The notes under the pieces: generated by a model
The model's input: the letters and a program-made list of their open reading frames with translations, nothing else
The model's database searches: none
Told to the model about the DNA's origin: nothing
Program-made: the position numbers and the translations under genes
In this document: positions 1,388 to 26,715 of the stretch, piece by piece
Layout: each line of letters opens with the position of its first letter
Numbering within the stretch: the first letter of the stretch is position 1
Source: a virus
Lineage: Duplodnaviria > Caudoviricetes
Reading direction: 5' to 3' (one strand)
Length of the DNA: 29,200 bases
Virus record (IMG/VR): IMGVR_UViG_3300044646_001050
Coordinates: 1 to 29,200 of that record

Positions 1388-4300
1388 TTATTTTAACAAT
1401 GAATACCATATACCTGGTTCTGCTTTTAAAAATGTTGATATTGCATCAGACCCACCATAAACACTACTACTATAATTACCAAGTCTATACCCCTGATTTA
1501 ATAAATCCATATTATACCCATCCCAGTTGATCCCGGAACGTTTGACAATCGTAACTCTAGTACCAGATGATAATTCATTAGTCAATCGTATAGTACTTGA
1601 TGTACCATCAACTGCAAAATCTGCATCAAATTGTATATCACCAGATGGACTATCTTGATTTATATTAACATTATGTACTTTATATGGTTGTTTCTTTAGA
1701 CGTATATTACCAATGAAAAAATCCCATTTTAAAATATCATCATGGAATGATAACCCACTCATATGTGCTTCTTTACATCTATATGTATAACTACCTATAA
1801 TCACAATATCATCAATTGCATAATTTACACTAGATACCCACATTGAACTATCATCATAACCACCAATAAATACTTCAATATCATCCGCTTGACCATAAGT
1901 TGATGGGATGGATGAAATATATCCAGAATCATAAGTCCATGTTGTTAAAGATTTAGTTGGTATAATATCGTCCAACTCAATTACTTTAGATCCAGTTGAT
2001 ACTATTTGTTTTGTAATTGGTGCTTCTGAATATGGAATAGTTTCACTTGCACCGATATCCTGCACAAATGATCCGACTTCATGAATGGTAGGAGTACCAG
2101 TTCCAAGTGTTCCTCTACGTAACTTGCTAAGAATATTACCGGTAATTTCAAAATATTCAATACGCTCACCTCGTATTTCAATAATACCAGGTTTATTATT
2201 AGTTGGATTTGGTTTATCAAAATTACTTCCATCAACAACTGTAATAATTGTATCATTCCATTTCAATTCATTTACAAGTGTAGTTTGTTTTTTCAAACTC
2301 AATCGTTTATAATGAGTTCTATTCAACATATCTTTGAATTGCATATATGCTATTGAAGGCAATAATATATTACTTCCAAAAGTAATTATTGAAAATTCGT
2401 CTGTTGAAATTGAACCATTAACAACTTCAATAGATGATTTATTCTCATTCAACTTGAAATCAACACTAGGTATTAATAGTATTCCATTTTTAACAACCCA
2501 CACATAATTGTCATTAATAACTGGTCTATCCAATGTGATAATTCCACCTAAAATATTATTATATATATAATATTCTGGTTCTTCTGATACTAATGTAATA
2601 TCTAAATTTAAATCAGAACGTTGAATATCTAAATTGGCGTGTTGATATGAATTAATAATCTCAACAGTATTTGAACTATTATATATTTCTTTAAAATATA
2701 TTTTTGCTGGTTCAGATGATGTTGCAGGTACATAAGAATAACCCTGGTCACTTATTAAACTAATAACTAATTGTTCTCCATTATATTTGGTATATGAATC
2801 TTTTGTTATTTTTACAGTTATACCACTTAGATCAATTGAATAATCTGCACCTATCGTTAACAATTTACCACCGGCATATACATTTATTGTATAAACATCA
2901 TCCTTATATGGTTGTTTGTTTATTTTATTAACAGTATAATTTAATTTGTTGCTTTTTATAGTAAAATAACTATTATTTGGTGCTTTTAATATAGCCTGAT
3001 CAACACGTACAATCATTTTTGCTTCAAGCGGCAGTGAATCACCATAAGTTGTCATTAATGAATATGGCAATGCTGATGCGCGACCATCAGCCGGGATCTT
3101 TTCAATTTTAGAAAATGAAAATGATTGATTTACTCCATTACTTATTATATAATCTATATTTGAATAAACTTCTGGTGCTTCATCAAATTTAATTGCAATG
3201 AAACCATCCTGATTTATCAAAGTATATGATCCTGAAACGCCGTTTATATTAACCAAGGATGATACTGGTTGCAACCATGGTGCACATGTTAAAAATTCTT
3301 TAGTATTACCATCTCCTATATCATGGCCTATATCCAGTAAATTATTACCACTGTATCCAATTTCGAAAATAGATATAAGTGAATCAGCTACCGGTGCTTG
3401 ACCAAAAACAATTGCATTAGTAATACCATCTATTGAATAATCCACACCAATAGATTTTATAACTGACTGATTATTAGTACTTACTTTAACAATGATAGAC
3501 TTATTGTTAGTACTACCATGTGTTATTGGAAAAGTTTTTACAATACCATCAGCATAGTAATTATCAATGTTTATATTAGCTGAACCATTAGATTGCATAT
3601 CAAATACTTTAATTGCAACAGTATCAACAACTTGTCCTGGTATTACTTCTTCTGGTGCTGGTGATGATGTCGGTGTAATAAAACCATCCCCATCTATAAT
3701 AATATCATCAGCAGCCAACCCTCTTGCTGTTGAATATACTAAATCACCACCACTTAATGCAGTATCATAATCAGCTTCAAGTGGTTTTATAGAACCATCA
3801 CTTGTTATCTTTCTAAAGATGAATTCATCATTTTCATTAACATCTACTGAATCTGGAATCGTTATTGTTTTATGAATCCCATCACCAATAAACGATGACA
3901 TTACCGCATTACTATTAGTTTGATCAACAGTATTATAATATTGATCATCTATTCTCAATGGATCATCTGTAGAATCAGCCGGTTTATGATATACCGTTAT
4001 TACTACTCCTGTTTCTGGAACATACGGTAAATTAAATTCTCGTGTATCAGCTGCAACATACACAATATAATCATCAAATGTTGAATCCATAGTATCCCAT
4101 TTGTCTGAATAATATGGTGAACTATCCCAACCTCTGCTTACTTCAAATCCAAGACCGCTAACAATAACACCACCATAATCAATACCAGTCATCAGTTGAG
4201 ACAAATCTTTACCTAACTCACCATCACCTGGATTGTAATAATATTGAATTCTGTCGGCAGCATTTAATAATGACCAATCTTTTATGTATGTGATTGAAAC

Positions 4301-7300
4301 GATTGCATTATTTGATGGTGCAGTTAAAAATGTTAATGACCCTACATAATTAGTATGACCATTAACAACTGTTTTTACAATTTTTAATTTATAATCATCT
4401 CGTAATGCATCAATACCATTAATGGTGACCGTTGATGTACCTACTCTAACGTCTGGTGCCCATTTTAATGGGAATATTAAGCGAGAACCAGTTCCAGAGA
4501 ATGTTTCTATCTCTTGTAATTTAGTAATATAATATGACTGTGTAATTCTATCAAATTTTATCTTAACCAGATTTGAACGAATAACACCATCACCGATTAT
4601 AGCAACTGCAGTTGCAGTTGTGCCAGTAGGCGATAACCCACCATCTAACTGAATAATTGGTGCAGACAAATACCCTGAACCAGTTGTCATTAAAATCACA
4701 CGAGTAACTTTACCATTTGCAATAAAAGCTTTTGCAGTAGCTGCAATTTTTGAGTTACCATTAATTCGAACTACTGGTTCACTAATATAACCTGAACCAC
4801 CATTAACTACTGTAATACTAAGTACATTAAATCCAACATTATCCAACCAATGTTTCCATGGATATGATTGAATATGAGAGTCATCTATATTAATAATACC
4901 ATCTGTAACTGTTGTCTCAATCATCCCAATATTTCCATTGTCATATATTGGTGGTATGTCAAAATCAGTAACTGATAATTGATTTAATTCAGTTTTATTA
5001 TATGCACTAATATATTCACGTACTTTAGTTCTATATGGTTTTACTTCTGATACATATTCTTCAAAATTTGTTAGGTTATCATTTTTGTATGTAACAGATT
5101 GGTGCAATTCGCCTAAGTTATGTTTTGCTTTTATGAAACTAGTTTTAAATATCCAATCAACATAGGATTGTTCACTTAATACATATCTTACACATGTAAA
5201 AAATAAATTTAAATATTCAGTTTTCAAATCATCAATGAAAATGTCATTTTTAATGCTATTCAATATAACTCTCAATTCAGTTGATGCACTATTATCAAAT
5301 ATTCCACCATCATATAACAAATTATCATATCCAACAATTGTATGAGAAAACTCATACAATGAACTACTTAATTGAATAGTACCGTCCTGTGATGCTATTA
5401 ATTGATATGAACTCGTCCAATCAATTGACTGAGAATCAGCATACTTTTTCAATACGACCCACGTTCCTAAATTTGTATATCGTACTTTGACTAATTCTCC
5501 AATATTAACTTCAATTGAATTTAAATCACTATATGTATCCACTGAATATTGTATTGCACTAAATTGATTATACCCATTATCGTACCAATCAACATAATTC
5601 CAATATTTTCTAGTATCATATGTTTGTGAACGAACTCTAGACCATAATAATGTTGTTGGATCATATGAATAAATGCTCCATACACCAGATGATTGAGAAT
5701 CACTATGAACTAATACAGAATAATCCCTTACCACTAAAATAGTACTGTCATTATATCCATATCCACTGTTAATAATAGTAACACCATCAATTTGCCCATA
5801 TCCATTAAGTTTAGCTTTAATAACAGCATTTACACCTGAACCAACAACTTCAATAAATGGTGGATTAATATATCCTCTACCAGAACTTTTTATAGTAATA
5901 CCAGTAATTCTTCCATCAATTATTTGCGGTTCTATAACAGGTCTAGAATAAGAGTTGATATTTGCAAATCTTAATTCTGCATCAGTATCAACTATATCAT
6001 CATATAATCCTCGTATAATATGTGGTTCGGTTTCATAACTTTCTAGGTTACTAATATCGCGTGTTTCAGTGATTAATCTAGATTTTAATATTAAATTGGT
6101 CTGTTCAACATATTGTTTTAATGCCTCGTATCGATTTATAAACATGCTTTGATTAGGTCTAAATTCAACCCCATAGCGTAATTTTAATGGCAATGTTGTA
6201 TCAGGTATTACTCTTTCCTGTTCATCCTTTCCACATAGACTATCAATCCATTTTTTTTCCAATTGTGAAGGTATGGTACTATTAACATCTGTACTCAACA
6301 TTTTCCACTGTGAATGAATATTATTCTCACTGTTTTCAACTAACCAATATTCAACTGATAATACAACGTTTTTATCATTTAATAATGATTTTACATTAAC
6401 CAAGCTAAATGAATTAGAACCAGTCAATGCAAGATATTGATATCCTTCCCCACGTGGGTTTGATATTAAACTAGATATATCTTGGGCAGAAATATATCTA
6501 CCAGTTGTATTAGGTGTAGTTTTTTTATTTTTAACCCAATAGTAATATGTATTTTTAAATGTTTTACTAACATTATCATACTTTCGTTTTATACTGTATG
6601 CTGCATCTCCATATAATGATTTACCACTCATACCAATAGTCAACCCAACCTCAGTATCAGCTTGTAAATCCCAGTCAGATGGAAGATATTTTGATTCAAC
6701 CCATTCATAGATATCAACAGATGCACCAGTTGCTAATGTACTCCATGTACTGTTTCTATAAACAACATCATTATCATTACTATCAATGAATTTTGAAGTT
6801 CTCAAATCCCACCATAATGTTCCAATATTTTTAGTAGTCCATGCCATACCATCATCAACATTCACAGTTGATGTCCCAACTGTGTATATCGCTGGATCAT
6901 AGAAAACTTTATATTTTATTTCCGATTCAGCAATACCTGCTATTTTACCATTTAATGGATCAATTATATCCAAGTATTTTATTAATTCATTGGTTGATTT
7001 ATTATATAAGAACGCCTGTTTTATTTTTTTAACGTCTGGAATTAATATTTCACTATGTTTAATTTTCCAACTATATACATTTGGTTGTTTTTTATATTCA
7101 TATATTACTCCAGCTTTTATATTATTAGAAAAAGCATATGGTGAACTAACTAAAATATTATTATTTGAGGCAGTCAGGACAGTGCCATATCCATCAACCT
7201 CAGAATCAGTCATTTCTAAGCTTTCACTAAAAACCCACTTAGACCCATAATTGTTATAAACATCAATTCTTCCACTATCTAAATTATTTTCATCAATAAA

Positions 7301-10300
7301 TATGGTAGTTTTATCATCAAATGTAGTATCATCTATAAAATTACATTTCACCTGAGTGTCAGCATTTTTACTATAAACCAATAATGTTTTATAATCATTT
7401 GTAAATAATAATTTAGTACCAAAATATCCAGATACTTCTATGTTATTGTTTATTAATGATTGATATAATTCATACTCAATACCATTGTTTTTATAAACAA
7501 TAACTTTACCTTCATTATTTTTATCACCATCAAATAAAATGTCTGAAATAGAAATATATTCACCAGATGATGAAATAGTTATATCTTTTCCAAAATATGC
7601 ATTAGTTCCACCAATTGTTTGTGCCAATACATCATTTTCATATACAAATACTTTACCAGGTAAATCAATGTTACCAGGAGCTGAAATTAAAAGAGTAGAT
7701 CCATCAACAGTACCAACTATTTTATTGCCATATCCACTATTTGTATTAGTACCATGTTTTGTTTTTGATGTATTATATTTCCATTCAGTTGTAATAAACT
7801 TAATAATTCCAGTTGGGGTTGAATCAGGTTCTAGGTTTAATAATATGGTTTTATTAACAGAATCTACACTTACTACGGTTTGTGATTTTGTAAATCCAAT
7901 ACCAGTTACTTTCATTCCAGGTAGTATTCCCGATACTGTAGATAATTTTATTGTGGTTCCTTTGCTTCCTATTTCATCATAGTATGCAGATACCCATTCT
8001 GTATTAGAATATTCTAATTTATACACAGTACCATTTCCATACTCAGCACCAACATATAAGCAATTAATACCAAAAAATAAACTTGAACCAAATTTTTCAT
8101 TCTGAGTTGGGTTTGGACTTAAAATGGTTGCGACTAGTGTATAGATATTATTAATATCTTTTTCATATAACGATATCACACCATGATTAACAATACTTGA
8201 TGCATTTAACTGTTCATCAATAGCATTAATAAATCCATTCGTTTGATATGAACCATTACTAGTGTTAGGAGATCCGGTTGCCATCCATCTATTATCAATA
8301 GACATTGCAATAACATTTGCAATATTTGAAACATCATTAGGATTTACATGGTCAACATCCGGGGTTATAAATGGAGTTTCAATGATTTGACGTTGTACCC
8401 ATGGGCCAGTACTACTTCCTCTATCATATGTTATAACTTCTCCAGTTTCTAAGGTAGTCGCAAGTAATCTAGCATCTGAATTTATTGAAATTACCTTACC
8501 ATATTTCAAGTTATTACTTGGATTTCTATATAAATGGGTAGTACGTGTGTAAACCTGAGAGTATTCCCATGTTGACCACATTCCTGTTCCATTGTCATCA
8601 GTCCATAATAACTCATTTTCCTTTAATACTTTTGGTAGTTTTAAATCAATATTATCTATAGAATCAACACGTTGACTTATAAATGAATAAATTATGGTAT
8701 TTTTATTATTTTCATATGGTAGATCTATCTGCAATCCAATTACGTCAATCGTTAATACATTTAGTTTAACATCGGAAATTTTATAAAATCCACTTATACC
8801 AGTTGTTATATATGTACCATCAACTTTTATGTTTTCTCTAATCCCAATATAAGATCCAATAGGTAATGAAATTAATGAATCAGCAGTAATAGTTAATTTA
8901 TTATTGCTATAAGTAATATCATTAATTACAATATTTGCATCTGTATATCTATAAACATTCCATCCGTTTATATCAAATGAGCACCATACGTAATCACCAT
9001 TAGAAAAATTTGTAATATCTTGTGTTAAAATATCATCAATTGATTTTAAGCTAACTAATACTTCATCTTCTCTCACATACCCAGAAGTTCTTAAAAATGG
9101 TTTTTTAGATGTTAACATTGGCCATGGATTTGAATTGTATCCAACTGGTTTTAAATATACATCATTTTGTGATTGTCTTATAATAAAATCAACAGAAGTG
9201 GTATCAATTTTATTCACCAACTCAATTCCTTGTGGATTATTTTTGAATAGTGATTCATCTAAAATAAATTCAATATTTTCATATGAATTACTAGCGCCAT
9301 ATTGACCAACCCGAACTGCCCATTCTTCGTTAAATTTCAAACTTTCTTGGTTATCGGCACTTAATACATCAAAAAGTTTATTCAATACATTTTGAGTCCC
9401 TTTTTCAAGTATCATTCCTTGATAAAATTTAAACTCACTAACATCATCTTGAATAATATTTTCTAAATATTGACGTTTTTGATATCCAATCAAATGTTGT
9501 GCCATTTTTTGTTGTGTTATATCAAAGTTATCGCTATCCAAACTATAAAAATCTTCAAATTGACTGGCTTTGTAATTCCAATTTGGAAGTAACGCTGCTT
9601 CAGGTTTTTTATCTAGTTTAATCCATAACGTATGATTAAATTCATTAGTACCATTTATAAATTTACTAGAACTATAATAAAATTCTTTATATTTTACAAT
9701 ATCACCAAGCGCATAATCTTTCCATGCTTCCCAATCTTGTATTTTAGCTTGATCAAAGATAAAACCAGGCACATCAAATGCACCATACCAACCAATACTA
9801 AGATATCCAGATACTTTTATTCTATCTTGTTTATATCCACTTTCTGGATTATATATGGTGTCATTAAACATTGTAGAATTATCTAGAATAACAACTTGCT
9901 CTTTTTGAACTAAGTAAAAGGTAGCGCCATAAATACCGTCATCACCCTGTGGTGTATAACTAACTGCATTATCTTCTCTATACGAATTCAAGAAGTTATA
10001 TGGTATAGCTTGACCATCTACGCGATATATTTCATATCCATTAAATGAATTGGTAATATCATCAACAACTGATAATGGTGAACTAAATGTTAATTTTTCA
10101 GCAGCTGGACTTAATGAAATCACCGAACTTCCAATAGAACTCAACCCATCCAATTTTGCAAAATCATGTTCGTTGAATATAGATGATTGAGAATTTCTGA
10201 TTGCACGATAATAATCACCGTTATATCGCACTATTGATCCATATGATACTAATACATCAGCATCCCATTCATCCCATTTATCTTGCCCAGTTGACCAATT

Positions 10301-13300
10301 TTGAGTAGTCCAGAATAAAAATTCTTTCGCACTGGTTTCCCAGTTAGTTACACTGGCTATATTAGTATTAAAATCATCAAAAATAAATCCTTGATCTTTT
10401 AAATATTCACCATAACCTTGTAAAAAATCTACTACTTCTTGTGTAGTTCTAAATTTAGTATTATACGGAATAATTAATGCCGATTCTCTATCCCAACGTT
10501 TTCTTAGAATTGCATCTTTACCACCTATAATAGGCAATTCAGCTAATACTTGATAATATGATTGGTCAAATGTTGTACCAGTTGTATGTAATGATTTTAC
10601 TCTATAATATTTTCCATTATAATTTACAATTTTACCAGCAGAATATTGTTGATTTGATGTCCATTGTAGATAACTTTCTGATATACCACCAACATTTATT
10701 GTAATTCCTGATTGTTGCCATGCATAATATTTGAAATATGGAGTGGTTTTACTATATCCTTTAACTTCAAATCCATCAGCCATTTTGGTAACAATTACAC
10801 CACTATATGTAATTTTTTTAATAGGATTTGAACTATTCAAAATTATATCATAATTTTCTTGCGGTACAAAAACACTACCAGTTGACAATGGGGTCTTGGA
10901 ATCTAATAATAAATTGAATTTTTCTTTACTTGTAAAAGATCCAAGTCTATGCGATATTCTAGCTGAAATATTGGTTAAATCATATTGATATTGCGTATAT
11001 GATTTTAAATTATCACTTAAAATATAATTAACTAAATAATTTATTATGCCAGCAGTCTGTTCTCTAGTATTACTAGATTGAATACTTGGTAGTACAATAT
11101 CACTTGGTTTGATTCGTAATCCTGTGTCTTTATATACTAGTTGTCCTGTTTTATTTCTAATAATCCTAGAACGATCTAATAATACTCCGATAGATTTATT
11201 TGGGTTTAATAATAATACAGTAATTAAAATCCCAAATGAGTAGTATGAACTACGTCTCCATGCTGATTCAATTGGGCTGCTATCACCAAACACAAAATCA
11301 CCACCAATTGATTCAGTTATGATCCCATTTGCCAAATCAGACATAATAGGACTCACCAATGCACCATATTCATCTACTGGTATATGGTTTGTTATAAATG
11401 GTTTAGCATACTTTTCCAATCTAATAGTAGGCTTACCTGGTTCTTTTACATAGCCATTGCTAATGTCATCCCACAATACAAAATTATTACTAGTATACGG
11501 CGCAGGTCCATATACATCTGTCCACCAATATGGTTCTTCAGTAAATCCTAGCATCTCCCACGGGCACAGGTGCGGTCTATCAGTATCTAAAATCCATTTA
11601 TATACCCCACGCCAATATCCTGGAACGTTACTTCCATCTGGTGCTGAATGCCCTGAATAGTTATAAGTGAATGAATTACTTCTATCAAAGCTCAATGGTT
11701 TTGAAAAATCTCGATCTATTAATGATGTCCATTTATAAAAATTAGGAGCTAAAACTGTATTGAATTCTGATAAACTATAGTCGGTTTTTCTGTTATATCC
11801 TGGAATGGTATCATTTAAATCAAATATTGTTATATCGTATTGTACTTTAATATTGTTGTAAATACGTTTTTCCAATTCTAATAACAATGCATCACGGTAA
11901 TCAGGAGTACCATTAGCATCATATGTTCCATATGCCAATACTTGACTACCATCGTGTCCTTGAATCATCCATCGTGGTGTTATAAAACTAGTATCAAGAT
12001 ATATCATTGGTTGATATTTTGGAAATAGTCCTAGCTTTGTTGGTGTTTCAGGAACAAAACATCCATCGGTATTTTCATACTCATAAATTGTTATAATATC
12101 ATCATTGATCAATTTTGATGTTATAACAACGAATCCTTGTCCATCAAAATAGTAATCACGACTATGTAATAATTGCTCGTTGTTAACATATATAATTACA
12201 GCTTTATTAGATAATGTTTCTGTTGTGAATACAGTTGTTAATGGATAAAGTTTTATTCTATAATCAACTACTTGTATTGTGGTTTTTATACTAGCACCAT
12301 ATGGAACCATATCACTAAAATAATAAGGAAAAGTATTCGGTTTATCTTTGTTAATTTTATCCAATATTAGATCTATATGTGTTATTACATCAATGTCTAC
12401 CCCTGTACGTTCAGCAATTTTAATAAAATTTCGTTTAAAATTACCATAATCATCTCTACTTTTTTCTATTGATCTTATAATATTGTTAGTTTCAGTTGTT
12501 ATATGGTATAAAGATAAACTTGCTGGACCGCTGTGTTGTATGAATCGAGTACCATATTGTGATATATTACCCAAATCTCTTAAATTACTAGTGCCTGGGA
12601 AATCACCAGAAAAGTTTGATAAATTATCAACAATTGAATTTACATGATCAATAACTTCACCAAGTGTAAAATCAGTCATCTCATCATTCATTGGATTGTT
12701 CTGGAGATTTAATGGTATTTCATAGTACCCGTTCCCATTAATTCCCTGTGCTGCAAATGCTCTAATAGTTAATATATCTGTTGGCATTACATCGGTATCT
12801 AACTGCACGACTTTATATGTTGGACCATCAATTATCTGCCATTTAGAATTATCCAATCTAGTACCATTTACATATACTTTTATGGTTAAATCATCCAACT
12901 CATTAATATTATCAAATATATCAATTTGAAAATCATTTAATTGAGTGGTTGATTTATAAATTCTAATCGCAGCTTGTGTGTTATCAATTGTATTTTTTTG
13001 CCAGCCATTTACATATTCAGTATTCCCAGCATAATCCATTTTTGATAAATATCCAACATTAATTTTTTTATTAATAACTGTTGATAGTTCTTTATATATA
13101 AAGGTGTCTGAGATTAAGTTAAAATTAAAAACAATATCACCTATATTATTAATATTTTTATATGATAATGGGAATCCTAGAACTGAGTCAGCTGGTCCTG
13201 ATCCAATCTTATATGAAAATAACTTAGTTCCACTAAAAGTAGAGCCAGTAAAGGTATTAATATCACTATAACTAACACCAGTGTCATCAACAACATCAAA

Positions 13301-14962
13301 TAATGGTGGTTGATTTAATGATGTTTTTTGCTGTGTTTTAACCCAATTATCACCATTGAACCAATACATTTCCCCTTGATTTTTAACACCTGAATGAATT
13401 AAAACCACTTGATCAATAGTCGGTGTGCTAACTTCAACCAAATGAATAATTTTTGATAAGGATACACCATTCAATGATAGATGTTCAAAATCTAAAATTT
13501 CTACTTCATATATTTTATTTTTAACTAATGGATCTGTATCAGCTGCTGCTAGAATTCTATGACCAGCTAGTAAATCCACACCATCAATGTTATACCCATG
13601 TGATCCTTCAATTGTTGAAAATATATCAGTTGTATATGTATCTATAAGATCAACATCATTAATAGCAGTTGTTCCAAAATTAAATAATCTTATATCAGCT
13701 TCAAATTCAATAATTGCACGGTTTGCTCTTGCTGATTGATCTAAGTCAGCTATTTTATTATTGAATCTAGCACTCGATTCTATAGTATCTTTATGGAACC
13801 ATCTATTATATCTAGACCAAGGATTATGATCTCTACTAGCTCTATTAATAACAATGTAATCTGGCTGCCCTGCATATGATAATGCATCATTGAATGGCAA
13901 TTTATCAAAAGGTGTTGTATCAAATTCAACATTAACTGATGATGTATAAGAACTTGTCATCTCTAATACAGATTCATTAACCAATCTTATCGAAGACCCA
14001 ATACCTTCAACATAATATTTTCCAGTAGAATATTCAGAAGGTTCTACATTTCCACCAAATGTAACTTTCATGCCATTACTTAACGGTGTCCCGTCTGGTA
14101 ATTTGTATGTTTTTTTACCTAATATCTCAGTTTCTACATTGATATATGAATTTTCTTCAATCGATAAAATGTGAATTACTCCACCTAAATCAGTATCATT
14201 TTCACTTTGATAATATAATACAGATGGTGCATCATGCGGAACTGTAAAAGTTATAGTACCAGTTTCTATAGTATTATTTTTCAACCCTATATTAGTATAT
14301 CTATTACTAGAACCAGAACTTCTATGTGTTTTGAAACTAAATGGATTTCCAGGACTTGTTATTTCAAAATTGTATGTTTGTCCTTTGAATAAAGTAAGTA
14401 CTGGATTTCTATCCAATCCATTTGGGGTGAATATATATGTATTATTGTCGCCTTCAGATTCTATGTTTACAGTGTAAGTACTTTCTATAGCATGTTTCTG
14501 CCCATATATTCTAACTACATCTGGTCCATATGGTAACCAATAATAATTTTGAAAGTTCGATATTTTATCCCAATCAATATGTGGATCCCAACTGTAAAAT
14601 TCTTCTTTATTAATTCTAGAATGGTTTGATACATCACTACCAAATACGTCTAATTGATTGATATAATCAATATAATCTTTAAACAAGGTAGTGTTGTTCA
14701 ACGTATCTTTAATAACTAATCCAGGCTCTAATTGATAATTTTGTCGAACTGTATCAGTAGCAGAAACAAATATATCTTCCCCAGAAGTTGCTTTAGCATT
14801 TCTACGACCAATATAACCATTTACTTTTTTAACAGTGCCAGGTTTAATTAATTGATCCATTGTAGCTTGTAAAAACTTTTTATTAAAATCAGTTGCATAG
14901 ATTCTTGGTAAAAAGGTTGAAGAAATGTTATTACTGGCGTTTGGTTTTGTGCTATCAGCCAT
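1388..14962 (-). CDS. Giant (4524 aa) multidomain baseplate wedge / adhesin protein, gp7-like position
   Basis: Uninterrupted ORF coupled (TAATG) to the gp6-like gene. Contains a gp7/P2-gpI-like core motif (FYQGMILEKGTQNVLNKLF), four CBM5/12-like W..Y..G.IV.Y..Y modules, seven FG-GAP-like blades, GxGY-type virion repeats and repeated GDG..K.F / VNG....DY beta modules. Confidence 0.75.
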   Translation of the reverse strand: MADSTKPNASNNISSTFLPRIYATDFNKKFLQATMDQLIKPGTVKKVNGYIGRRNAKATSGEDIFVSATDTVRQNYQLEPGLVIKDTLNNTTLFKDYIDYINQLDVFGSDVSNHSRINKEEFYSWDPHIDWDKISNFQNYYWLPYGPDVVRIYGQKHAIESTYTVNIESEGDNNTYIFTPNGLDRNPVLTLFKGQTYNFEITSPGNPFSFKTHRSSGSSNRYTNIGLKNNTIETGTITFTVPHDAPSVLYYQSENDTDLGGVIHILSIEENSYINVETEILGKKTYKLPDGTPLSNGMKVTFGGNVEPSEYSTGKYYVEGIGSSIRLVNESVLEMTSSYTSSVNVEFDTTPFDKLPFNDALSYAGQPDYIVINRASRDHNPWSRYNRWFHKDTIESSARFNNKIADLDQSARANRAIIEFEADIRLFNFGTTAINDVDLIDTYTTDIFSTIEGSHGYNIDGVDLLAGHRILAAADTDPLVKNKIYEVEILDFEHLSLNGVSLSKIIHLVEVSTPTIDQVVLIHSGVKNQGEMYWFNGDNWVKTQQKTSLNQPPLFDVVDDTGVSYSDINTFTGSTFSGTKLFSYKIGSGPADSVLGFPLSYKNINNIGDIVFNFNLISDTFIYKELSTVINKKINVGYLSKMDYAGNTEYVNGWQKNTIDNTQAAIRIYKSTTQLNDFQIDIFDNINELDDLTIKVYVNGTRLDNSKWQIIDGPTYKVVQLDTDVMPTDILTIRAFAAQGINGNGYYEIPLNLQNNPMNDEMTDFTLGEVIDHVNSIVDNLSNFSGDFPGTSNLRDLGNISQYGTRFIQHSGPASLSLYHITTETNNIIRSIEKSRDDYGNFKRNFIKIAERTGVDIDVITHIDLILDKINKDKPNTFPYYFSDMVPYGASIKTTIQVVDYRIKLYPLTTVFTTETLSNKAVIIYVNNEQLLHSRDYYFDGQGFVVITSKLINDDIITIYEYENTDGCFVPETPTKLGLFPKYQPMIYLDTSFITPRWMIQGHDGSQVLAYGTYDANGTPDYRDALLLELEKRIYNNIKVQYDITIFDLNDTIPGYNRKTDYSLSEFNTVLAPNFYKWTSLIDRDFSKPLSFDRSNSFTYNYSGHSAPDGSNVPGYWRGVYKWILDTDRPHLCPWEMLGFTEEPYWWTDVYGPAPYTSNNFVLWDDISNGYVKEPGKPTIRLEKYAKPFITNHIPVDEYGALVSPIMSDLANGIITESIGGDFVFGDSSPIESAWRRSSYYSFGILITVLLLNPNKSIGVLLDRSRIIRNKTGQLVYKDTGLRIKPSDIVLPSIQSSNTREQTAGIINYLVNYILSDNLKSYTQYQYDLTNISARISHRLGSFTSKEKFNLLLDSKTPLSTGSVFVPQENYDIILNSSNPIKKITYSGVIVTKMADGFEVKGYSKTTPYFKYYAWQQSGITINVGGISESYLQWTSNQQYSAGKIVNYNGKYYRVKSLHTTGTTFDQSYYQVLAELPIIGGKDAILRKRWDRESALIIPYNTKFRTTQEVVDFLQGYGEYLKDQGFIFDDFNTNIASVTNWETSAKEFLFWTTQNWSTGQDKWDEWDADVLVSYGSIVRYNGDYYRAIRNSQSSIFNEHDFAKLDGLSSIGSSVISLSPAAEKLTFSSPLSVVDDITNSFNGYEIYRVDGQAIPYNFLNSYREDNAVSYTPQGDDGIYGATFYLVQKEQVVILDNSTMFNDTIYNPESGYKQDRIKVSGYLSIGWYGAFDVPGFIFDQAKIQDWEAWKDYALGDIVKYKEFYYSSSKFINGTNEFNHTLWIKLDKKPEAALLPNWNYKASQFEDFYSLDSDNFDITQQKMAQHLIGYQKRQYLENIIQDDVSEFKFYQGMILEKGTQNVLNKLFDVLSADNQESLKFNEEWAVRVGQYGASNSYENIEFILDESLFKNNPQGIELVNKIDTTSVDFIIRQSQNDVYLKPVGYNSNPWPMLTSKKPFLRTSGYVREDEVLVSLKSIDDILTQDITNFSNGDYVWCSFDINGWNVYRYTDANIVINDITYSNNKLTITADSLISLPIGSYIGIRENIKVDGTYITTGISGFYKISDVKLNVLTIDVIGLQIDLPYENNKNTIIYSFISQRVDSIDNIDLKLPKVLKENELLWTDDNGTGMWSTWEYSQVYTRTTHLYRNPSNNLKYGKVISINSDARLLATTLETGEVITYDRGSSTGPWVQRQIIETPFITPDVDHVNPNDVSNIANVIAMSIDNRWMATGSPNTSNGSYQTNGFINAIDEQLNASSIVNHGVISLYEKDINNIYTLVATILSPNPTQNEKFGSSLFFGINCLYVGAEYGNGTVYKLEYSNTEWVSAYYDEIGSKGTTIKLSTVSGILPGMKVTGIGFTKSQTVVSVDSVNKTILLNLEPDSTPTGIIKFITTEWKYNTSKTKHGTNTNSGYGNKIVGTVDGSTLLISAPGNIDLPGKVFVYENDVLAQTIGGTNAYFGKDITISSSGEYISISDILFDGDKNNEGKVIVYKNNGIEYELYQSLINNNIEVSGYFGTKLLFTNDYKTLLVYSKNADTQVKCNFIDDTTFDDKTTIFIDENNLDSGRIDVYNNYGSKWVFSESLEMTDSEVDGYGTVLTASNNNILVSSPYAFSNNIKAGVIYEYKKQPNVYSWKIKHSEILIPDVKKIKQAFLYNKSTNELIKYLDIIDPLNGKIAGIAESEIKYKVFYDPAIYTVGTSTVNVDDGMAWTTKNIGTLWWDLRTSKFIDSNDNDVVYRNSTWSTLATGASVDIYEWVESKYLPSDWDLQADTEVGLTIGMSGKSLYGDAAYSIKRKYDNVSKTFKNTYYYWVKNKKTTPNTTGRYISAQDISSLISNPRGEGYQYLALTGSNSFSLVNVKSLLNDKNVVLSVEYWLVENSENNIHSQWKMLSTDVNSTIPSQLEKKWIDSLCGKDEQERVIPDTTLPLKLRYGVEFRPNQSMFINRYEALKQYVEQTNLILKSRLITETRDISNLESYETEPHIIRGLYDDIVDTDAELRFANINSYSRPVIEPQIIDGRITGITIKSSGRGYINPPFIEVVGSGVNAVIKAKLNGYGQIDGVTIINSGYGYNDSTILVVRDYSVLVHSDSQSSGVWSIYSYDPTTLLWSRVRSQTYDTRKYWNYVDWYDNGYNQFSAIQYSVDTYSDLNSIEVNIGELVKVRYTNLGTWVVLKKYADSQSIDWTSSYQLIASQDGTIQLSSSLYEFSHTIVGYDNLLYDGGIFDNSASTELRVILNSIKNDIFIDDLKTEYLNLFFTCVRYVLSEQSYVDWIFKTSFIKAKHNLGELHQSVTYKNDNLTNFEEYVSEVKPYRTKVREYISAYNKTELNQLSVTDFDIPPIYDNGNIGMIETTVTDGIINIDDSHIQSYPWKHWLDNVGFNVLSITVVNGGSGYISEPVVRINGNSKIAATAKAFIANGKVTRVILMTTGSGYLSAPIIQLDGGLSPTGTTATAVAIIGDGVIRSNLVKIKFDRITQSYYITKLQEIETFSGTGSRLIFPLKWAPDVRVGTSTVTINGIDALRDDYKLKIVKTVVNGHTNYVGSLTFLTAPSNNAIVSITYIKDWSLLNAADRIQYYYNPGDGELGKDLSQLMTGIDYGGVIVSGLGFEVSRGWDSSPYYSDKWDTMDSTFDDYIVYVAADTREFNLPYVPETGVVITVYHKPADSTDDPLRIDDQYYNTVDQTNSNAVMSSFIGDGIHKTITIPDSVDVNENDEFIFRKITSDGSIKPLEADYDTALSGGDLVYSTARGLAADDIIIDGDGFITPTSSPAPEEVIPGQVVDTVAIKVFDMQSNGSANINIDNYYADGIVKTFPITHGSTNNKSIIVKVSTNNQSVIKSIGVDYSIDGITNAIVFGQAPVADSLISIFEIGYSGNNLLDIGHDIGDGNTKEFLTCAPWLQPVSSLVNINGVSGSYTLINQDGFIAIKFDEAPEVYSNIDYIISNGVNQSFSFSKIEKIPADGRASALPYSLMTTYGDSLPLEAKMIVRVDQAILKAPNNSYFTIKSNKLNYTVNKINKQPYKDDVYTINVYAGGKLLTIGADYSIDLSGITVKITKDSYTKYNGEQLVISLISDQGYSYVPATSSEPAKIYFKEIYNSSNTVEIINSYQHANLDIQRSDLNLDITLVSEEPEYYIYNNILGGIITLDRPVINDNYVWVVKNGILLIPSVDFKLNENKSSIEVVNGSISTDEFSIITFGSNILLPSIAYMQFKDMLNRTHYKRLSLKKQTTLVNELKWNDTIITVVDGSNFDKPNPTNNKPGIIEIRGERIEYFEITGNILSKLRRGTLGTGTPTIHEVGSFVQDIGASETIPYSEAPITKQIVSTGSKVIELDDIIPTKSLTTWTYDSGYISSIPSTYGQADDIEVFIGGYDDSSMWVSSVNYAIDDIVIIGSYTYRCKEAHMSGLSFHDDILKWDFFIGNIRLKKQPYKVHNVNINQDSPSGDIQFDADFAVDGTSSTIRLTNELSSGTRVTIVKRSGINWDGYNMDLLNQGYRLGNYSSSVYGGSDAISTFLKAEPGIWYSLLK

Positions 14963-18438: not shown

Positions 18439-18446
18439 TATTTATT
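18439..18446 (-). promoter_or_regulatory. Putative late promoter (AATAAATA) for the gp6/giant wedge genes
   Basis: In the 46-nt gap, 18 nt upstream of ATG 18420, followed by SD AGGA. Confidence 0.65.
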
Positions 18447-23993: not shown

Positions 23994-24022
23994 TTGACAA
24001 AAACAACGCATCATGCTATAAT
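23994..24022 (+). promoter_or_regulatory. Consensus sigma70/sigmaA promoter for the late sigma factor gene
   Basis: TTGACA (23994-23999), 17-nt spacer, TATAAT (24017-24022) with extended -10 TG (24014-24015); SD AAGGA before ATG 24046. Confidence 0.9.
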
Positions 24023-24045
24023 TTACTAGAATATAAGGATATATA

Positions 24046-24876
24046 ATGACAACCACCCCTAAAAACTATCTTAACAATAAGGACATGTTACTAGAGATAC
24101 ACAGATCAAAAACATCATATTGCAGCTTTGTTGATAAAAGTTATCACCAATATGATATAATTTTACCAAGCTTAGATAAGATAAACGTTCGTTCAATAGC
24201 AGAAGCAAAACGTAACCAAGCAAAAAGATTGTCAGAAACTGATTATTCTACTAGAAAAGCAGCAGGTGAAAAAATAAAACTATCCGACTGTGAAATAAAC
24301 TATAAAAAAATACCAAAAACTGATTTAATATTTAGAATTATGTCTTATGACCACATCCCAGCGGAACACGGGCGTAAGAAAAACCCAAAATCTGAAGCAG
24401 ATAAAAGAGCAAAAGTTAACTTCAAGCCATTCCAACATTGGAAATTTGATGAAAATGATAACTTAGTATGTGTAGGAAAAAGTCATTGGAAAGGAGACTT
24501 AGAAACTGGATACTTTGATAAAAATGCAGGAAAAATAACAGATACATTGGCAAGAATGATGCTAAAATTATGTGAAAGATATGCTACTCGTGGAAACGTG
24601 AGAGGATATACTTACAATGATGAAATGCGAGGTCAAGCAATTTTACAGTTGACCCAAATTGGATTACAATTCGATGAATCAAAATCCGATAACCCGTTTG
24701 CTTATTTTACAGCAGCGGTCACTAACTCGTTTGTTAGAGTTATTAATATTGAAAAAAGAAATCAAAATATTAGAGATGATATTTTGGAAATGAATGGACT
24801 TAACCCATCGTTTACTCGTACCAATTCGGGTGATTTTGAAGCTGGTGAAAGACGATATAACGATGATCATGAATAG
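24046..24876 (+). CDS. gp55: Late-transcription sigma factor, T4 gp55-like, with a large N-proximal insertion (276 aa)
   Basis: NYLNNKDMLLEI matches the gp55 N-terminus (NYVNNKELL). LARMMLKLCERYATRGNVRGYTYNDEMRGQA...FDESKSDNPFAYFTAAVTNSFVRVINIEKR matches the gp55 core. T4-like synteny with gp47/gp46. Confidence 0.92.
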   Translation: MTTTPKNYLNNKDMLLEIHRSKTSYCSFVDKSYHQYDIILPSLDKINVRSIAEAKRNQAKRLSETDYSTRKAAGEKIKLSDCEINYKKIPKTDLIFRIMSYDHIPAEHGRKKNPKSEADKRAKVNFKPFQHWKFDENDNLVCVGKSHWKGDLETGYFDKNAGKITDTLARMMLKLCERYATRGNVRGYTYNDEMRGQAILQLTQIGLQFDESKSDNPFAYFTAAVTNSFVRVINIEKRNQNIRDDILEMNGLNPSFTRTNSGDFEAGERRYNDDHE

Positions 24877-24894
24877 CATGAAAAATTCATAATA

Positions 24895-24927
24895 TATGAT
24901 ATGAATACGAATCGTATTCATATCATA
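24895..24927. repeat. Perfect 16-bp inverted repeat (33-bp quasi-palindrome) between the convergent gp55 and HNH genes
   Basis: TATGATATGAATACGA-A-TCGTATTCATATCATA read directly; followed by an A-run up to the HNH stop codon. Confidence 0.95.
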
Positions 24928-24934
24928 AAAAAAA

Positions 24935-25573
24935 TCAAATATAAGACCAATTCTGAAATTTTTTACTACCACTTTTGCATCTTTTACAAACATTATTAGC
25001 TGTTATATTATGTGAGATCCCAGCATCTTGTAGTGAATTATAAATAATTCCATTAATTAGTACCTTTTTATATTGTTTAGGTCTATTTTTCATTTTTTCA
25101 TAAAATTCAGGATTTTTCCATAATTCTTTTCTGTAAATCGATAAACGGCGTTTAAATTCCTCATTATTTTTGAGCTTCATCAATCCAGCCAATGCAGCGG
25201 TTCTATATTCATAATTAGTTTTCCATTCGTGTTTTAATTTATCACTTTTCAATTGCTTCAAGTATGCATATATCCTTGATGAAGTTTTGAATGTTCGGTC
25301 ATGATTAGTAGTTTTCCATCTTAAAAATGATGATGCTGCATGTATCATCTTATATTGATCTTTACCACATGTAATTTTAATCAATAACAAATGACATATA
25401 TAATGCTCTCTTGCTGTTAATTGTACTAAATTTAATTTTGTATTGTCACCACCCATACTTTTTGGTATTATATGATGTTTTTCAACATACATATCGGTAG
25501 GCAAAATTCGGTGTTGTGCATTATATATAATAGAAAAATACCACTTTTTATACTTATTATCAATAAATATCAT
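24935..25573 (-). CDS. Freestanding HNH homing endonuclease (Mob-like) with C-terminal NUMOD1/IENR1-like HTH, 212 aa
   Basis: EKHHIIPKSMGGDNTKLNLVQLTAREHYICHLLL (HNH core); basic helical linker; KKVLINGIIYNSLQDAGISHNITANNVCKRCKS (HTH DNA-binding module); SD GGAG 8 nt upstream of ATG. Confidence 0.9.
   Translation of the reverse strand: MIFIDNKYKKWYFSIIYNAQHRILPTDMYVEKHHIIPKSMGGDNTKLNLVQLTAREHYICHLLLIKITCGKDQYKMIHAASSFLRWKTTNHDRTFKTSSRIYAYLKQLKSDKLKHEWKTNYEYRTAALAGLMKLKNNEEFKRRLSIYRKELWKNPEFYEKMKNRPKQYKKVLINGIIYNSLQDAGISHNITANNVCKRCKSGSKKFQNWSYI
25562..25569 (+). promoter_or_regulatory. Candidate late promoter (AATAAATA) embedded antisense in HNH codons 2-4
   Basis: HNH begins ATG ATA TTT ATT; the reverse complement gives AATAAATA, identical to the motif upstream of gp6. 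Expected start ~25575, at the base of hairpin 1. Confidence 0.4.
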
Positions 25574-25574
25574 T

Positions 25575-25637
25575 ACTGTAACTCCACTTAGTTATAGAGC
25601 AGTTAGATATCCCCATATCGTGAACTGCGTTTCTTAT
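25575..25637 (+). ncRNA. Candidate ~60-nt two-hairpin cis-antisense RNA, or structured leader of the HNH gene (strand not certain)
   Basis: Hairpin 1: CTGTAACT-ccactt-AGTTATAG (25576-25597; 8 bp including one G.U on the plus strand). Hairpin 2: GCAGTT-a-GATAT-cccc-ATATC-gtg-AACTGC (25599-25628). Then GTTTCTTAT. Confidence 0.5.
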
Positions 25638-25643
25638 AAATCC

Positions 25644-25672
25644 TTGACTTATGGTTTAACAGATGTTATAAT
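25644..25672 (+). promoter_or_regulatory. sigma70/sigmaA promoter for gp47-gp46
   Basis: TTGACT (25644-25649), 17-nt spacer, TATAAT (25667-25672) with extended -10 TG (25664-25665); SD AAGGA upstream of ATG 25705. Confidence 0.88.
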
Positions 25673-25679
25673 GTCCTTT

Positions 25680-25687
25680 TATTTATA
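25680..25687 (-). promoter_or_regulatory. Perfect T4-type late promoter TATAAATA oriented toward the HNH gene
   Basis: Plus-strand TATTTATA; intergenic, ~106 nt upstream of the HNH ATG; overlaps the palindrome ATTTATAAAT (25681-25690). Confidence 0.6.
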
Positions 25688-25704
25688 AATTCCAAGGATG
25701 GACA

Positions 25705-26715
25705 ATGAACTTATTCCACAAAGCAGCCTGTTTCACGGATATTCATTACGGCGCTAAAAGCAATAGTGAAATACACAATCAAGATTGTTTAGATTTTACT
25801 AAATGGTTTATAGAAGTTTCTAAACAACAAAATTGTGAAACTTGTATAATTCTAGGTGATTATCACAATAATAGATCAACAATAAATACACGGACATTAG
25901 ATTATATGCTTAAAAGTTTTGAATTGTTAAGCACTGCGTTTGAAAACACTTATATAATCCAAGGAAACCATGATTTATTTTTTAAAGATAAACGTGATAT
26001 CTCCAGTATAAAATGGGCATCCCATATAAAAAATATACATGTAATAGAAAAAGTTTCTTCTATTGGTAATGTAACATTATGTCCTTGGTTGGTCGGGGAT
26101 GAATGGAAATTACTTAACAAAATAAGTGGAAAATACATTTTTGGTCATTTTGAATTACCATCATTCTTTATGAATTCTCTCGTCCAAATGCCAGATCACG
26201 GTGAAATTAGCTTGGAACAATTCCAAAACTATGAACTTGGATTTAGTGGACATTTTCATAAAAGACAAAATCGTGGAAATATGCATTATATTGGTAATGC
26301 ATTTCCCCATAATTATGCAGATACGTGGGATGATGATCGTGGGATGATGATTTTAGAATGGGGTGGACAACCAGAATATCATGCATGGCCTAACCAGCCG
26401 ACATTTAGAACTGTAAAACTTAGTCAATTAATTGATGATGCTGATAAAATTCTAAAACCAAAACAACATTTAAGAGTTACATTAGACATTGATATTAGTT
26501 TTGAAGAAGCTAGTTTTATTAAAGAAAAATATGTTGGTGATTATAGACTGCGTGAATTAACACTAATCGCTGAGAAAAAAGCAGTTGAAATTAATACAGA
26601 TATCGATGTTCAAGCATTTGAAAGTATTGATACTATTGTAGCAAACCAAATCGTGAGTATCGAGTCAGATACTTTTAACAAAAACACTTTATTAGAAATT
26701 TATAACGGATTATGA
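25705..26715 (+). CDS. gp47: Recombination endonuclease subunit, Mre11/SbcD-like (T4 gp47)
   Basis: Metallophosphoesterase motifs TDIHYG, LGDYHNNR, GNHD, GHFE and SGHFH; ATGA overlap with gp46. Confidence 0.95.
   Translation: MNLFHKAACFTDIHYGAKSNSEIHNQDCLDFTKWFIEVSKQQNCETCIILGDYHNNRSTINTRTLDYMLKSFELLSTAFENTYIIQGNHDLFFKDKRDISSIKWASHIKNIHVIEKVSSIGNVTLCPWLVGDEWKLLNKISGKYIFGHFELPSFFMNSLVQMPDHGEISLEQFQNYELGFSGHFHKRQNRGNMHYIGNAFPHNYADTWDDDRGMMILEWGGQPEYHAWPNQPTFRTVKLSQLIDDADKILKPKQHLRVTLDIDISFEEASFIKEKYVGDYRLRELTLIAEKKAVEINTDIDVQAFESIDTIVANQIVSIESDTFNKNTLLEIYNGL

Follow-up and report, generated by a model that had tools for sequence, protein, structure and literature searches.

The window analysed here is the whole 29.2-kb stretch of a virus record, which holds baseplate genes, gp55, a reversed HNH gene and gp47/gp46. 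The late sigma factor gene gp55 lies at 24046-24876, and between it and gp47 a free-standing HNH homing endonuclease gene of 212 aa is read in the opposite direction (24935..25573, minus strand). The C-terminal end of the HNH protein is an I-TevI-type DNA-binding domain, and its profile matches are PF20987 above the cut-off, HNH below the cut-off, and phrog_655 (E 1e-32). The nearest cultured gp55 proteins, with 39-49% identity, come from PA5oct-like and Asteriusvirus jumbo phages. Related gp55-gp47 junctions without the HNH insert mostly overlap or have only a short promoter between the two genes. At many of these empty sites sigma-70-like promoters were seen by eye that resemble the one of gp47 in the window (25644..25672, plus strand, 11/12 matches), which lies outside the element described below. 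At the same junction, related HNH genes occur in forward orientation and without this element in L037 (2090-4690) and L048 (2495-4434), and the intergenic region of L132 has another insert. The gp55-gp47 junction is a repeatedly invaded site. A 15-bp perfect AT-rich palindrome is located at 24895-24927, between the gp55 stop and the HNH stop; L005 and L006 lack it at this site, their two stop codons being adjacent. Elsewhere in the window, a 4524-aa ORF (1388-14962, minus strand) lies downstream of gp6.

In T4 the late promoters are 8-bp TATA boxes that precede the start by about one turn (PMC2988020). Is there a comparable box in this phage? The hexamer TAAATA was observed 37 times in the window while 91 occurrences were expected, and copies are placed 24-29 nt before gp6 and three other gene starts. 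To judge by its sequence context, TAAATA behaves as the late box of the window phage.

The initial annotation read the start of the HNH gene as a small antisense RNA gene composed of a promoter, an anti-SD hairpin and a terminator-like hairpin. The octamer AATAAATA (25562..25569, plus strand; hexamer TAAATA at 25564-25569) is a late-promoter-like box and the predicted antisense promoter. It is indeed the complement of HNH codons 2-4, and it also precedes gp6 on the minus strand (ATAAATA at 18439-18445). The predicted antisense RNA of about 63 nt covers 25575..25637 on the plus strand; its start at A25575, a purine, was placed from the 5-nt hexamer-to-start spacing of cassette-less relatives and agrees with the position first proposed, and its 3' end is uncertain. 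Hairpin 1 (P1; 25576..25597, plus strand) has a near-invariant foot of C-G, U-A and G·U pairs and a variable upper stem. As had been stated, its 8 contiguous plus-strand pairs include G25578·U25595, which becomes A/C on the mRNA strand, and positions 25582-25585 are complementary to the Shine-Dalgarno GGAG of the HNH mRNA (25582..25585, minus strand), the loop (25584-25589) and its flank together forming the anti-SD. The YUNR-like CUUA claimed for this loop and its adjacent bases is present, although it is not unpaired throughout, its last A being paired in the stem. Hairpin 2 (P2/P3; 25599..25628, plus strand) had been placed correctly but drawn as 6+5 bp. It is better described as 6+1+5: the 6-bp stem, which covaries, is followed by a single pair set between two bulged G that are invariant (25620 and 25622), then by an upper stem and a GC-rich loop. 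The middle pair is kept in 69/69 aligned copies (G-C 45, G·U 16, A-U 8). The loop reads CCCC on the plus strand and GGGG on the other, and is a candidate kissing loop. The U-rich tail GUUUCUUAU follows at 25629..25637 (plus strand); on the minus strand this is the site of the sense hexamer of the family, which is degenerate here. The sense hexamer at its usual place is lost from the window copy; L005 and L006, which share the insertion site, have kept it. The nearest perfect late box pointing at the HNH gene, TATAAATA (25680..25687, minus strand, thus read from 25687 to 25680), is a likely substitute for the lost sense promoter. The fold of 25562-25637 reaches -16.2 kcal/mol on the plus strand (z -3.6, 0/200 shuffles as good) and -13.9 kcal/mol on the minus strand (z -1.4, 15/200 shuffles as good). 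As DNA, the plus strand also folds better (-7.4 vs -6.1 kcal/mol). Since the predicted RNA of the window copy lies on the gp55-gp47 strand, read-through from gp55 would also yield antisense RNA.

Is the element peculiar to the window? Among 80 loci of HNH relatives, which have 52 distinct leaders, 12 leaders carry the layout of the window copy. On the gene strand it runs TAAATA, a 6-bp stem, C-R-C, an inner hairpin, one pyrimidine and the 6-bp partner, followed by TCTA, the SD-bearing hairpin, CAGC, the start codon and TATTTA, about 90 bases in length. We call this block the cassette. IMG/VR was then scanned with two patterns, each anchored on one half of the cassette, which gave overlapping sets of 123 and 124 loci; the number of IMG/VR stretches with a cassette is estimated at about 1500 and about 1700 by these two overlapping patterns. 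A parser making no distinction between G·U and A·C yielded 188 distinct cores, and decoys gave 1 match in 696 kb of shuffled loci. Note that the family counts are numbers of related sequences, not of independent events.

The initial annotation had proposed that homologous leaders should covary, and that their wobble pairs should tell which strand folds. The alignment comprises 69 of 81 non-redundant copies, longer variants being left out. In it 95% of cells are paired and 15 of the 18 pairs have two-sided changes, and the stems do covary, with a score of 0.629 (0.215 when shuffled, at most 0.16 when slid). The score is 0.559 on 78 model-aligned rows, and RNAalifold recovered both outer stems unaided. 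The wobbles in turn favour the antisense strand. On the gene strand, the P2 stem of the 123 cores found without the P2 pattern has 712 Watson-Crick pairs, 26 A·C and 0 G·U; counted by distinct arm pair (46 of them), this is 20 A·C vs 0 G·U. In P1, the 188 cores show 107 A·C vs 1 G·U on the same strand at the first two pairs that vary, and the antisense strand folds better in 183/187 copies. At the loop-proximal P3 pairs neither strand is favoured (15 G·U, 10 A·C), in keeping with the loop inversions reported below. It should be noticed that G·T is preferred over A·C in single-stranded DNA too, so the strand bias is no proof of RNA. Some positions hardly vary: both bulged G are kept in 78/78 copies, the C-G of the first P1 pair in 78/78 and the linker A in 72/78, figures to be read with the fact that patterns, parser and model partly selected for the bulged-G, P1-foot and linker positions. 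Hairpin 2 is the most conserved part of the cassette. According to an argument set out in PMC5737381, such invariance exceeds the needs of plain cis-pairing. The covariance model R1 matches 25575-25640 with 52 bits, the window copy having belonged to its training set.

Is the hexamer hidden in the first codons more than chance? The initial annotation cautioned that ATAAATA is frequent in AT-rich DNA, and for the window by itself the caveat holds, as 22 other plus-strand TAAATA lie antisense inside minus-strand genes; it is the family data alone that lift the hidden hexamer above chance. Among 116 copies not selected for it, 112 have the antisense hexamer, in 109 of them 5-7 nt from CAG/hairpin 1. 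Its offsets from the ATG are 3, 4 and 5, which covers all three codon frames, and where P1 contains the ATG (L200, L232) its distance to CAG is still 6 nt. A protein-anchored comparison of HNH relatives, from which two rows without a start were dropped, found TATTTA in 12/12 cassette-bearing members (the window's near-twin included) vs 2/38 cassette-less ones, both of the latter with TACTTA. Where codons 2-4 encode x-Ile-Tyr, T+ATT is used in 66/66 cases vs 14/85 for internal Ile-Tyr. A GIY-YIG control (30/30 vs 3/19) was excluded as evidence, the search peptide encoding the hexamer and at least one 'negative' (L444) being a cassette. By these comparisons the hidden hexamer goes with the RNA rather than with the protein.

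The second hexamer faces the first. It lies 3-5 nt upstream of both hairpins in 178/188 copies, at the foot of hairpin 2. Where would transcription start? Among the cassette-less HNH relatives, 10/38 have the hexamer exactly 5 nt before the ATG. This arrangement, with no obvious SD, was seen in L021, L025, L029, L031, L033, L044 and L045, and likewise in L050, L065, L079, L421, L428 and L460; these cassette-less homing endonuclease genes probably make leaderless late mRNAs. The start was placed at the sixth base because the 5-nt hexamer-ATG spacing implies leaderless starts. With this spacing the predicted mRNA start falls on P2's first purine in 141 copies, and the predicted antisense start falls on a purine in 93/111. 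An SD-like 4-mer is found in P1 of 178/188 copies, and the predicted RNA overlaps the SD in every copy that has one. In 170 copies, the anti-SD is predicted to be unpaired at 0.77 in the antisense RNA vs 0.53 for the SD in the mRNA. The P3 loops are 6-7 nt long in 107/131 distinct hairpins and have 54% GC vs 39% in the background. Ten of them occur in both orientations, an inversion expected from a symmetric kissing contact, and the commonest loop of the family, UUGGCG/CGCCAA, is absent from the window. YUNR occurs in 91/168 P1 loops vs 40 shuffled, an imperfect control in that the SD fixes the base order, and in 72/131 P3 loops on either strand vs 53 with ends fixed. The proposal that hairpin 2 is a terminator is weakened, since only 102/188 copies have 5 or more U among the 8 nt that follow the stem; it is more likely a recognition hairpin. 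Because the U tail is weak in 86/188 copies, processing may produce the RNA 3' end, or transcription may continue further. Comparison strongly supports the rest of the architecture first proposed, through the antisense fold, the fixed distance of the hexamer from hairpin 1 whatever the codon frame, the predicted purine start and the anti-SD loop.

Which genes does the cassette precede? It had been described as belonging to an HNH nuclease, but it turns out to be portable and stands on many unrelated nuclease families. An ORF of at least 80 aa follows 172/188 cores, and the N-termini cluster into 112 GIY-YIG-like, 49 HNH and 11 others. Pfam searches on 112 complete ORFs gave NUMOD3 (47), HNH-type (21), GIY-YIG-type (9) and DUF7487 (3), with no match in 39, and some cassette-led ORFs are without a recognisable catalytic domain. 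The ORFs in L226, L290, L351, L389, L721, L723 and L726 seemingly have only NUMOD3/zinc-finger DNA-binding parts and no nuclease domain. In L224 (near 146-230), a cassette without the reverse hexamer lies 35 nt upstream of a terminase large subunit gene, perhaps a remnant after nuclease loss. In L694 and L175 the cassette is cut inside P1 and joined to an apparent nuclease 3' end, and these are probable internal deletions. A divergent cassette-like leader upstream of position 1488 in L448, undetected by model R1 at E 0.001, may represent a second subtype. Directly downstream of a cassette-led nuclease gene in L049 (3575-3950, minus strand) lies a betaproteobacterial-type permuted tmRNA, a possible hint at the host.

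The covariance model matches 25 of 38 long records, which were chosen partly for holding a copy, with up to 13 copies per genome. At gp47 loci it matches 0/43 (of 80 fetched), and since the empty gp55-gp47 sites are without the cassette, it travels with the nuclease. A displaced gp55 terminator was ruled out, as there are no such hairpins at the empty sites. In GTDB the hairpin is present in 7 of 121 pattern matches; the four with listed contigs are short or medium MAG contigs and probably phage DNA. How does the cassette spread? Its label is scattered on the HNH tree, with 10 changes for 12 rows vs a shuffled mean of 10.8, on a tree so poorly resolved (4/47 branches starred) that it is too weak for counting cassette gains. 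P2 arms are common to 120/311 pairs of copies within genomes vs 428/2035 between genomes, and loops are identical in 4/311 vs 26/2035. Avoidance of like loops within genomes is unsupported, as within-genome loops are no more different than between-genome ones. From these sequence comparisons the cassette seems to spread within a lineage while its loops vary.

A cultured phage also has a copy. When three cassette copies were compared with the phage collection by blastn, only Rhizobium phage RHph_I1_18 (MN988519.1) was found. Its cassette (E 3e-11; L745:1201-1278, which is MN988519.1 80290-80367; the cassette itself 80290-80359, minus strand) is placed before the phrog_314 homing endonuclease EVB91_137 and has TTGGCG in its loop. 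The reverse hexamer is 13 nt, not 6, from CAG, with a one-mismatch copy at 6 nt. No relative of RHph_I1_18 was found in the phage collection, and there was no significant model match in PA5oct (best E 0.5), 121Q, G17, Vibrio 2.275.O, Phosso, S-SRM01, RSP15, Motura and ACG-2014f. Since RHph_I1_18 infects a harmless host, Rhizobium phaseoli, its copy makes the cassette directly testable.

What then is the cassette for? Comparison of the copies establishes its spread, the covarying fold, the strand preference and the fixed spacing of both hexamers. Antisense transcription and translational repression are what we infer from these features. Contigs from three runs of the same study gave no coverage of the cassette, which counts neither for nor against a transcript. 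We hold it somewhat better than an even chance that 25562-25637 is one copy of a portable nuclease start cassette, in which a two-hairpin antisense RNA of about 63-70 nt, made from the hidden late promoter, would block translation by pairing with the mRNA leader. A gp55-type polymerase would begin the two transcripts at different hairpins, the mRNA at the foot of hairpin 2 and its antisense partner at that of hairpin 1. Their 5' ends would then overlap along about 62 nt, a stretch that takes in all of the leader with the SD and usually leaves out the AUG. Pairing would begin at the 6-7-nt GC-rich loop of hairpin 2 and/or at the anti-SD loop of hairpin 1, and the bulges would help the stems to open, as in plasmid antisense systems. 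The A·C mismatches would weaken the mRNA's own fold, the same positions being G·U in the antisense RNA. Because such an antisense RNA would diffuse and both promoters would be late, nuclease output would be damped with rising genome copy number, like multicopy inhibition in IS10. The cassette would be one block of promoter, SD, start codon and brake, and recombination within a phage lineage likely carries it from one nuclease gene to another, unrelated one. A point against a brake is that two late promoters active at once offer no obvious on/off timing. A wider form of the idea, which we think rather unlikely, takes the RNAs as a phage-wide family in which the loops are exchangeable and the three-dimensional core, made up of the bulged-G pair, the G·U foot and the 1-nt hinge, is fixed. 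Read by one shared factor, they would restrain every selfish nuclease in a jumbo-phage genome and could also silence, in trans, those of co-infecting phages, so that homing endonucleases would be subject to an incompatibility system based on RNA.

Other explanations have to be weighed against an antisense brake. An antisense-strand RNA could work by its shape, as protein ligand, nuclease partner or small ribozyme, with mRNA pairing secondary. The invariant bulged-G pair, the C-G/U-A/G·U foot and the 1-nt linker across divergent genomes are in its favour, and so is the persistence of intact cassettes before truncated or catalytic-domain-less ORFs. We regard it as unlikely: no single domain is common to the downstream proteins of the 112 ORFs, no Rfam ribozyme matches, the loops invert freely, and every copy with an SD overlaps it. 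A form of control known for such genes, a leader on the mRNA strand that masks the SD as in T4 I-TevI or Aeh1 mobE, seems very improbable here, although the mRNA strand also folds (the -13.9 kcal/mol above), the SD is about half paired in the predicted mRNAs, and such hairpins are the known control (PMC2988022; Dassa et al. 2009, PMC2677866). All lower-stem wobbles favour the other strand, and because both hairpins lie downstream of the sense hexamer, no late transcript can leave them out. A masking leader would also leave the frame-independent reverse hexamer unexplained, and the motifs reported by Dassa et al. differ in sequence.

Might the cassette act mainly as DNA, as a single-stranded hairpin or a PeSL-like recombination hub that shuffles nuclease genes and has an inverted TAAATA pair at its flanks? 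The dispersal of the copies (up to 13 in one genome), the sharing of stems within a lineage by cassettes on unrelated nucleases, the loop inversions, the scattering of the label on the poorly resolved HNH tree, and a plus strand that folds better as DNA too would all suit such a module. Both hexamers are at transcription-start spacing with purine starts, YUNR is enriched, and the nuclease 3' flanks show no second conserved end (every third complete ORF, by eye); we therefore find a module acting mainly as DNA improbable, while recombination and RNA control are not exclusive of each other. To the hidden promoter serving the neighbours we likewise give little credence. On that account the hairpins would serve as a 5' leader that stabilises or processes a longer transcript leading away from the nuclease (in the window, into gp47), or as an insulator against gp55 read-through. 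The weak U tail fits it, as does an upstream gene that is divergent in 84/125 crude calls; T4 nucleases carry promoters for neighbours (PMC2988022), and the plus strand of the window is the gp55-gp47 strand. Yet the upstream gene is co-oriented in 41/125, where the transcript would be antisense to it, gp47 has its own sigma-70 promoter, and the hairpins are unneeded at empty sites (0/43 gp47 loci).

If the antisense brake is true, an antisense RNA from a late promoter within the first codons would be an added layer to homing endonuclease control, brought by one portable block to hundreds of unrelated nuclease genes. It would offer a possible explanation of how a large phage can live with a dozen nucleases in its genome, and of how a newly captured nuclease might gain expression and restraint together. 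The cassette family is also a large natural library of compact, putative sense/antisense pairs.

How does the cassette compare with known systems? Rfam 15 at gathering score gave no match over the cassette (window 24000-26500; 11 + 7 cassette loci). Resemblances to hammerhead, attC, tRNA and Y-RNA were weighed by eye and dropped. HEARO and omega-type nuclease guide RNAs are long RNAs on the ORF strand of one nuclease family; unlike these, the putative cassette RNA is short, antisense and found on many families, and has no Rfam match. An antisense RNA on a mobile gene has a precedent in IS200, where the cis-antisense RNA art200 silences it. We found no description of the cassette in the literature searched, and a listing in the supplement of PMC5737381 or of other motif catalogues is possible.

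Known control of phage homing endonucleases (PMC2988022) comprises mRNA hairpins, promoter timing and autorepression. The same source describes RBS-masking hairpins with an embedded late promoter for T4 I-TevI/II/III, segB and Aeh1 mobE, and the GOS fractured-gene nucleases have single mRNA-strand leader hairpins with other motifs (Dassa et al. 2009, PMC2677866). The cassette is like them in having a late promoter and a hairpin at homing endonuclease starts of several nuclease types. In those cases, as far as these texts describe them, the mRNA strand folds, the promoter is inside the hairpin so that late transcripts escape, and no promoter faces it. The cassette differs in each of these points, having neither a conserved fold on the mRNA strand nor the late promoter inside the hairpin. 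PeSLs of T4-like phages, according to PMC4122927, are dispersed units of early promoter and terminator before varied ORFs. These too are small, lineage-homogenised regulatory cassettes before unrelated genes, which they are thought to shuffle by recombination; unlike them, the present cassette has two facing late-type boxes, an antisense fold and nuclease cargo.

In layout the cassette resembles antisense RNAs of plasmids. The commonest cassette loop, UUGGCG/CGCCAA, is the ColIb-P9 target loop (PMC10724649); the Inc RNA of the I-complex is defined by a CGCCAA/UUGGCG loop on a bulged upper stem. The cassette has bulges, and the loop in the window is CCCC/GGGG. The RNAI/Inc RNA controls rep through a pseudoknot, unlike the cassette, which would target nuclease-like genes, and the shared loop could have arisen by convergence, or by chance where loops are GC-rich. 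In FinP/traJ (PMC8136791) and RepX/repA (PMC5415839), RNAs of 74-79 nt with two stem-loops and a U tail block the RBS and draw specificity from their loops. FinP (79 nt, two stem-loops, U tail) matches the cassette in size and layout. The plasmid systems differ in needing FinO and in a 4-nt spacer, where the cassette has a 1-nt spacer and a weak U tail. Genes with a ProQ/FinO domain (PF04352) were found in 0/10 phage records, and a phage-encoded RNase III in 0/10. IS10 RNA-OUT (PMC5006887) is a 69-nt cis-antisense RNA from a facing promoter against the RNA-IN initiation region, with the first 35 nt overlapping, and its repression grows with copy number. The cassette would be like RNA-OUT/RNA-IN in placing a small cis-antisense RNA on the DNA-cutting enzyme of a selfish element. 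It is unlike IS10, an IS element with one transposase, in its phage late-type promoters, whole-leader overlap, two hairpins and unrelated nuclease families. A facing promoter near the initiation region, and a structured, SD-complementary RNA predicted on the antisense strand, are features that its sequence has in common with the RNA-OUT/FinP class. By this analogy the cassette would work like RNA-OUT and FinP, yet it appears to belong to no described family.
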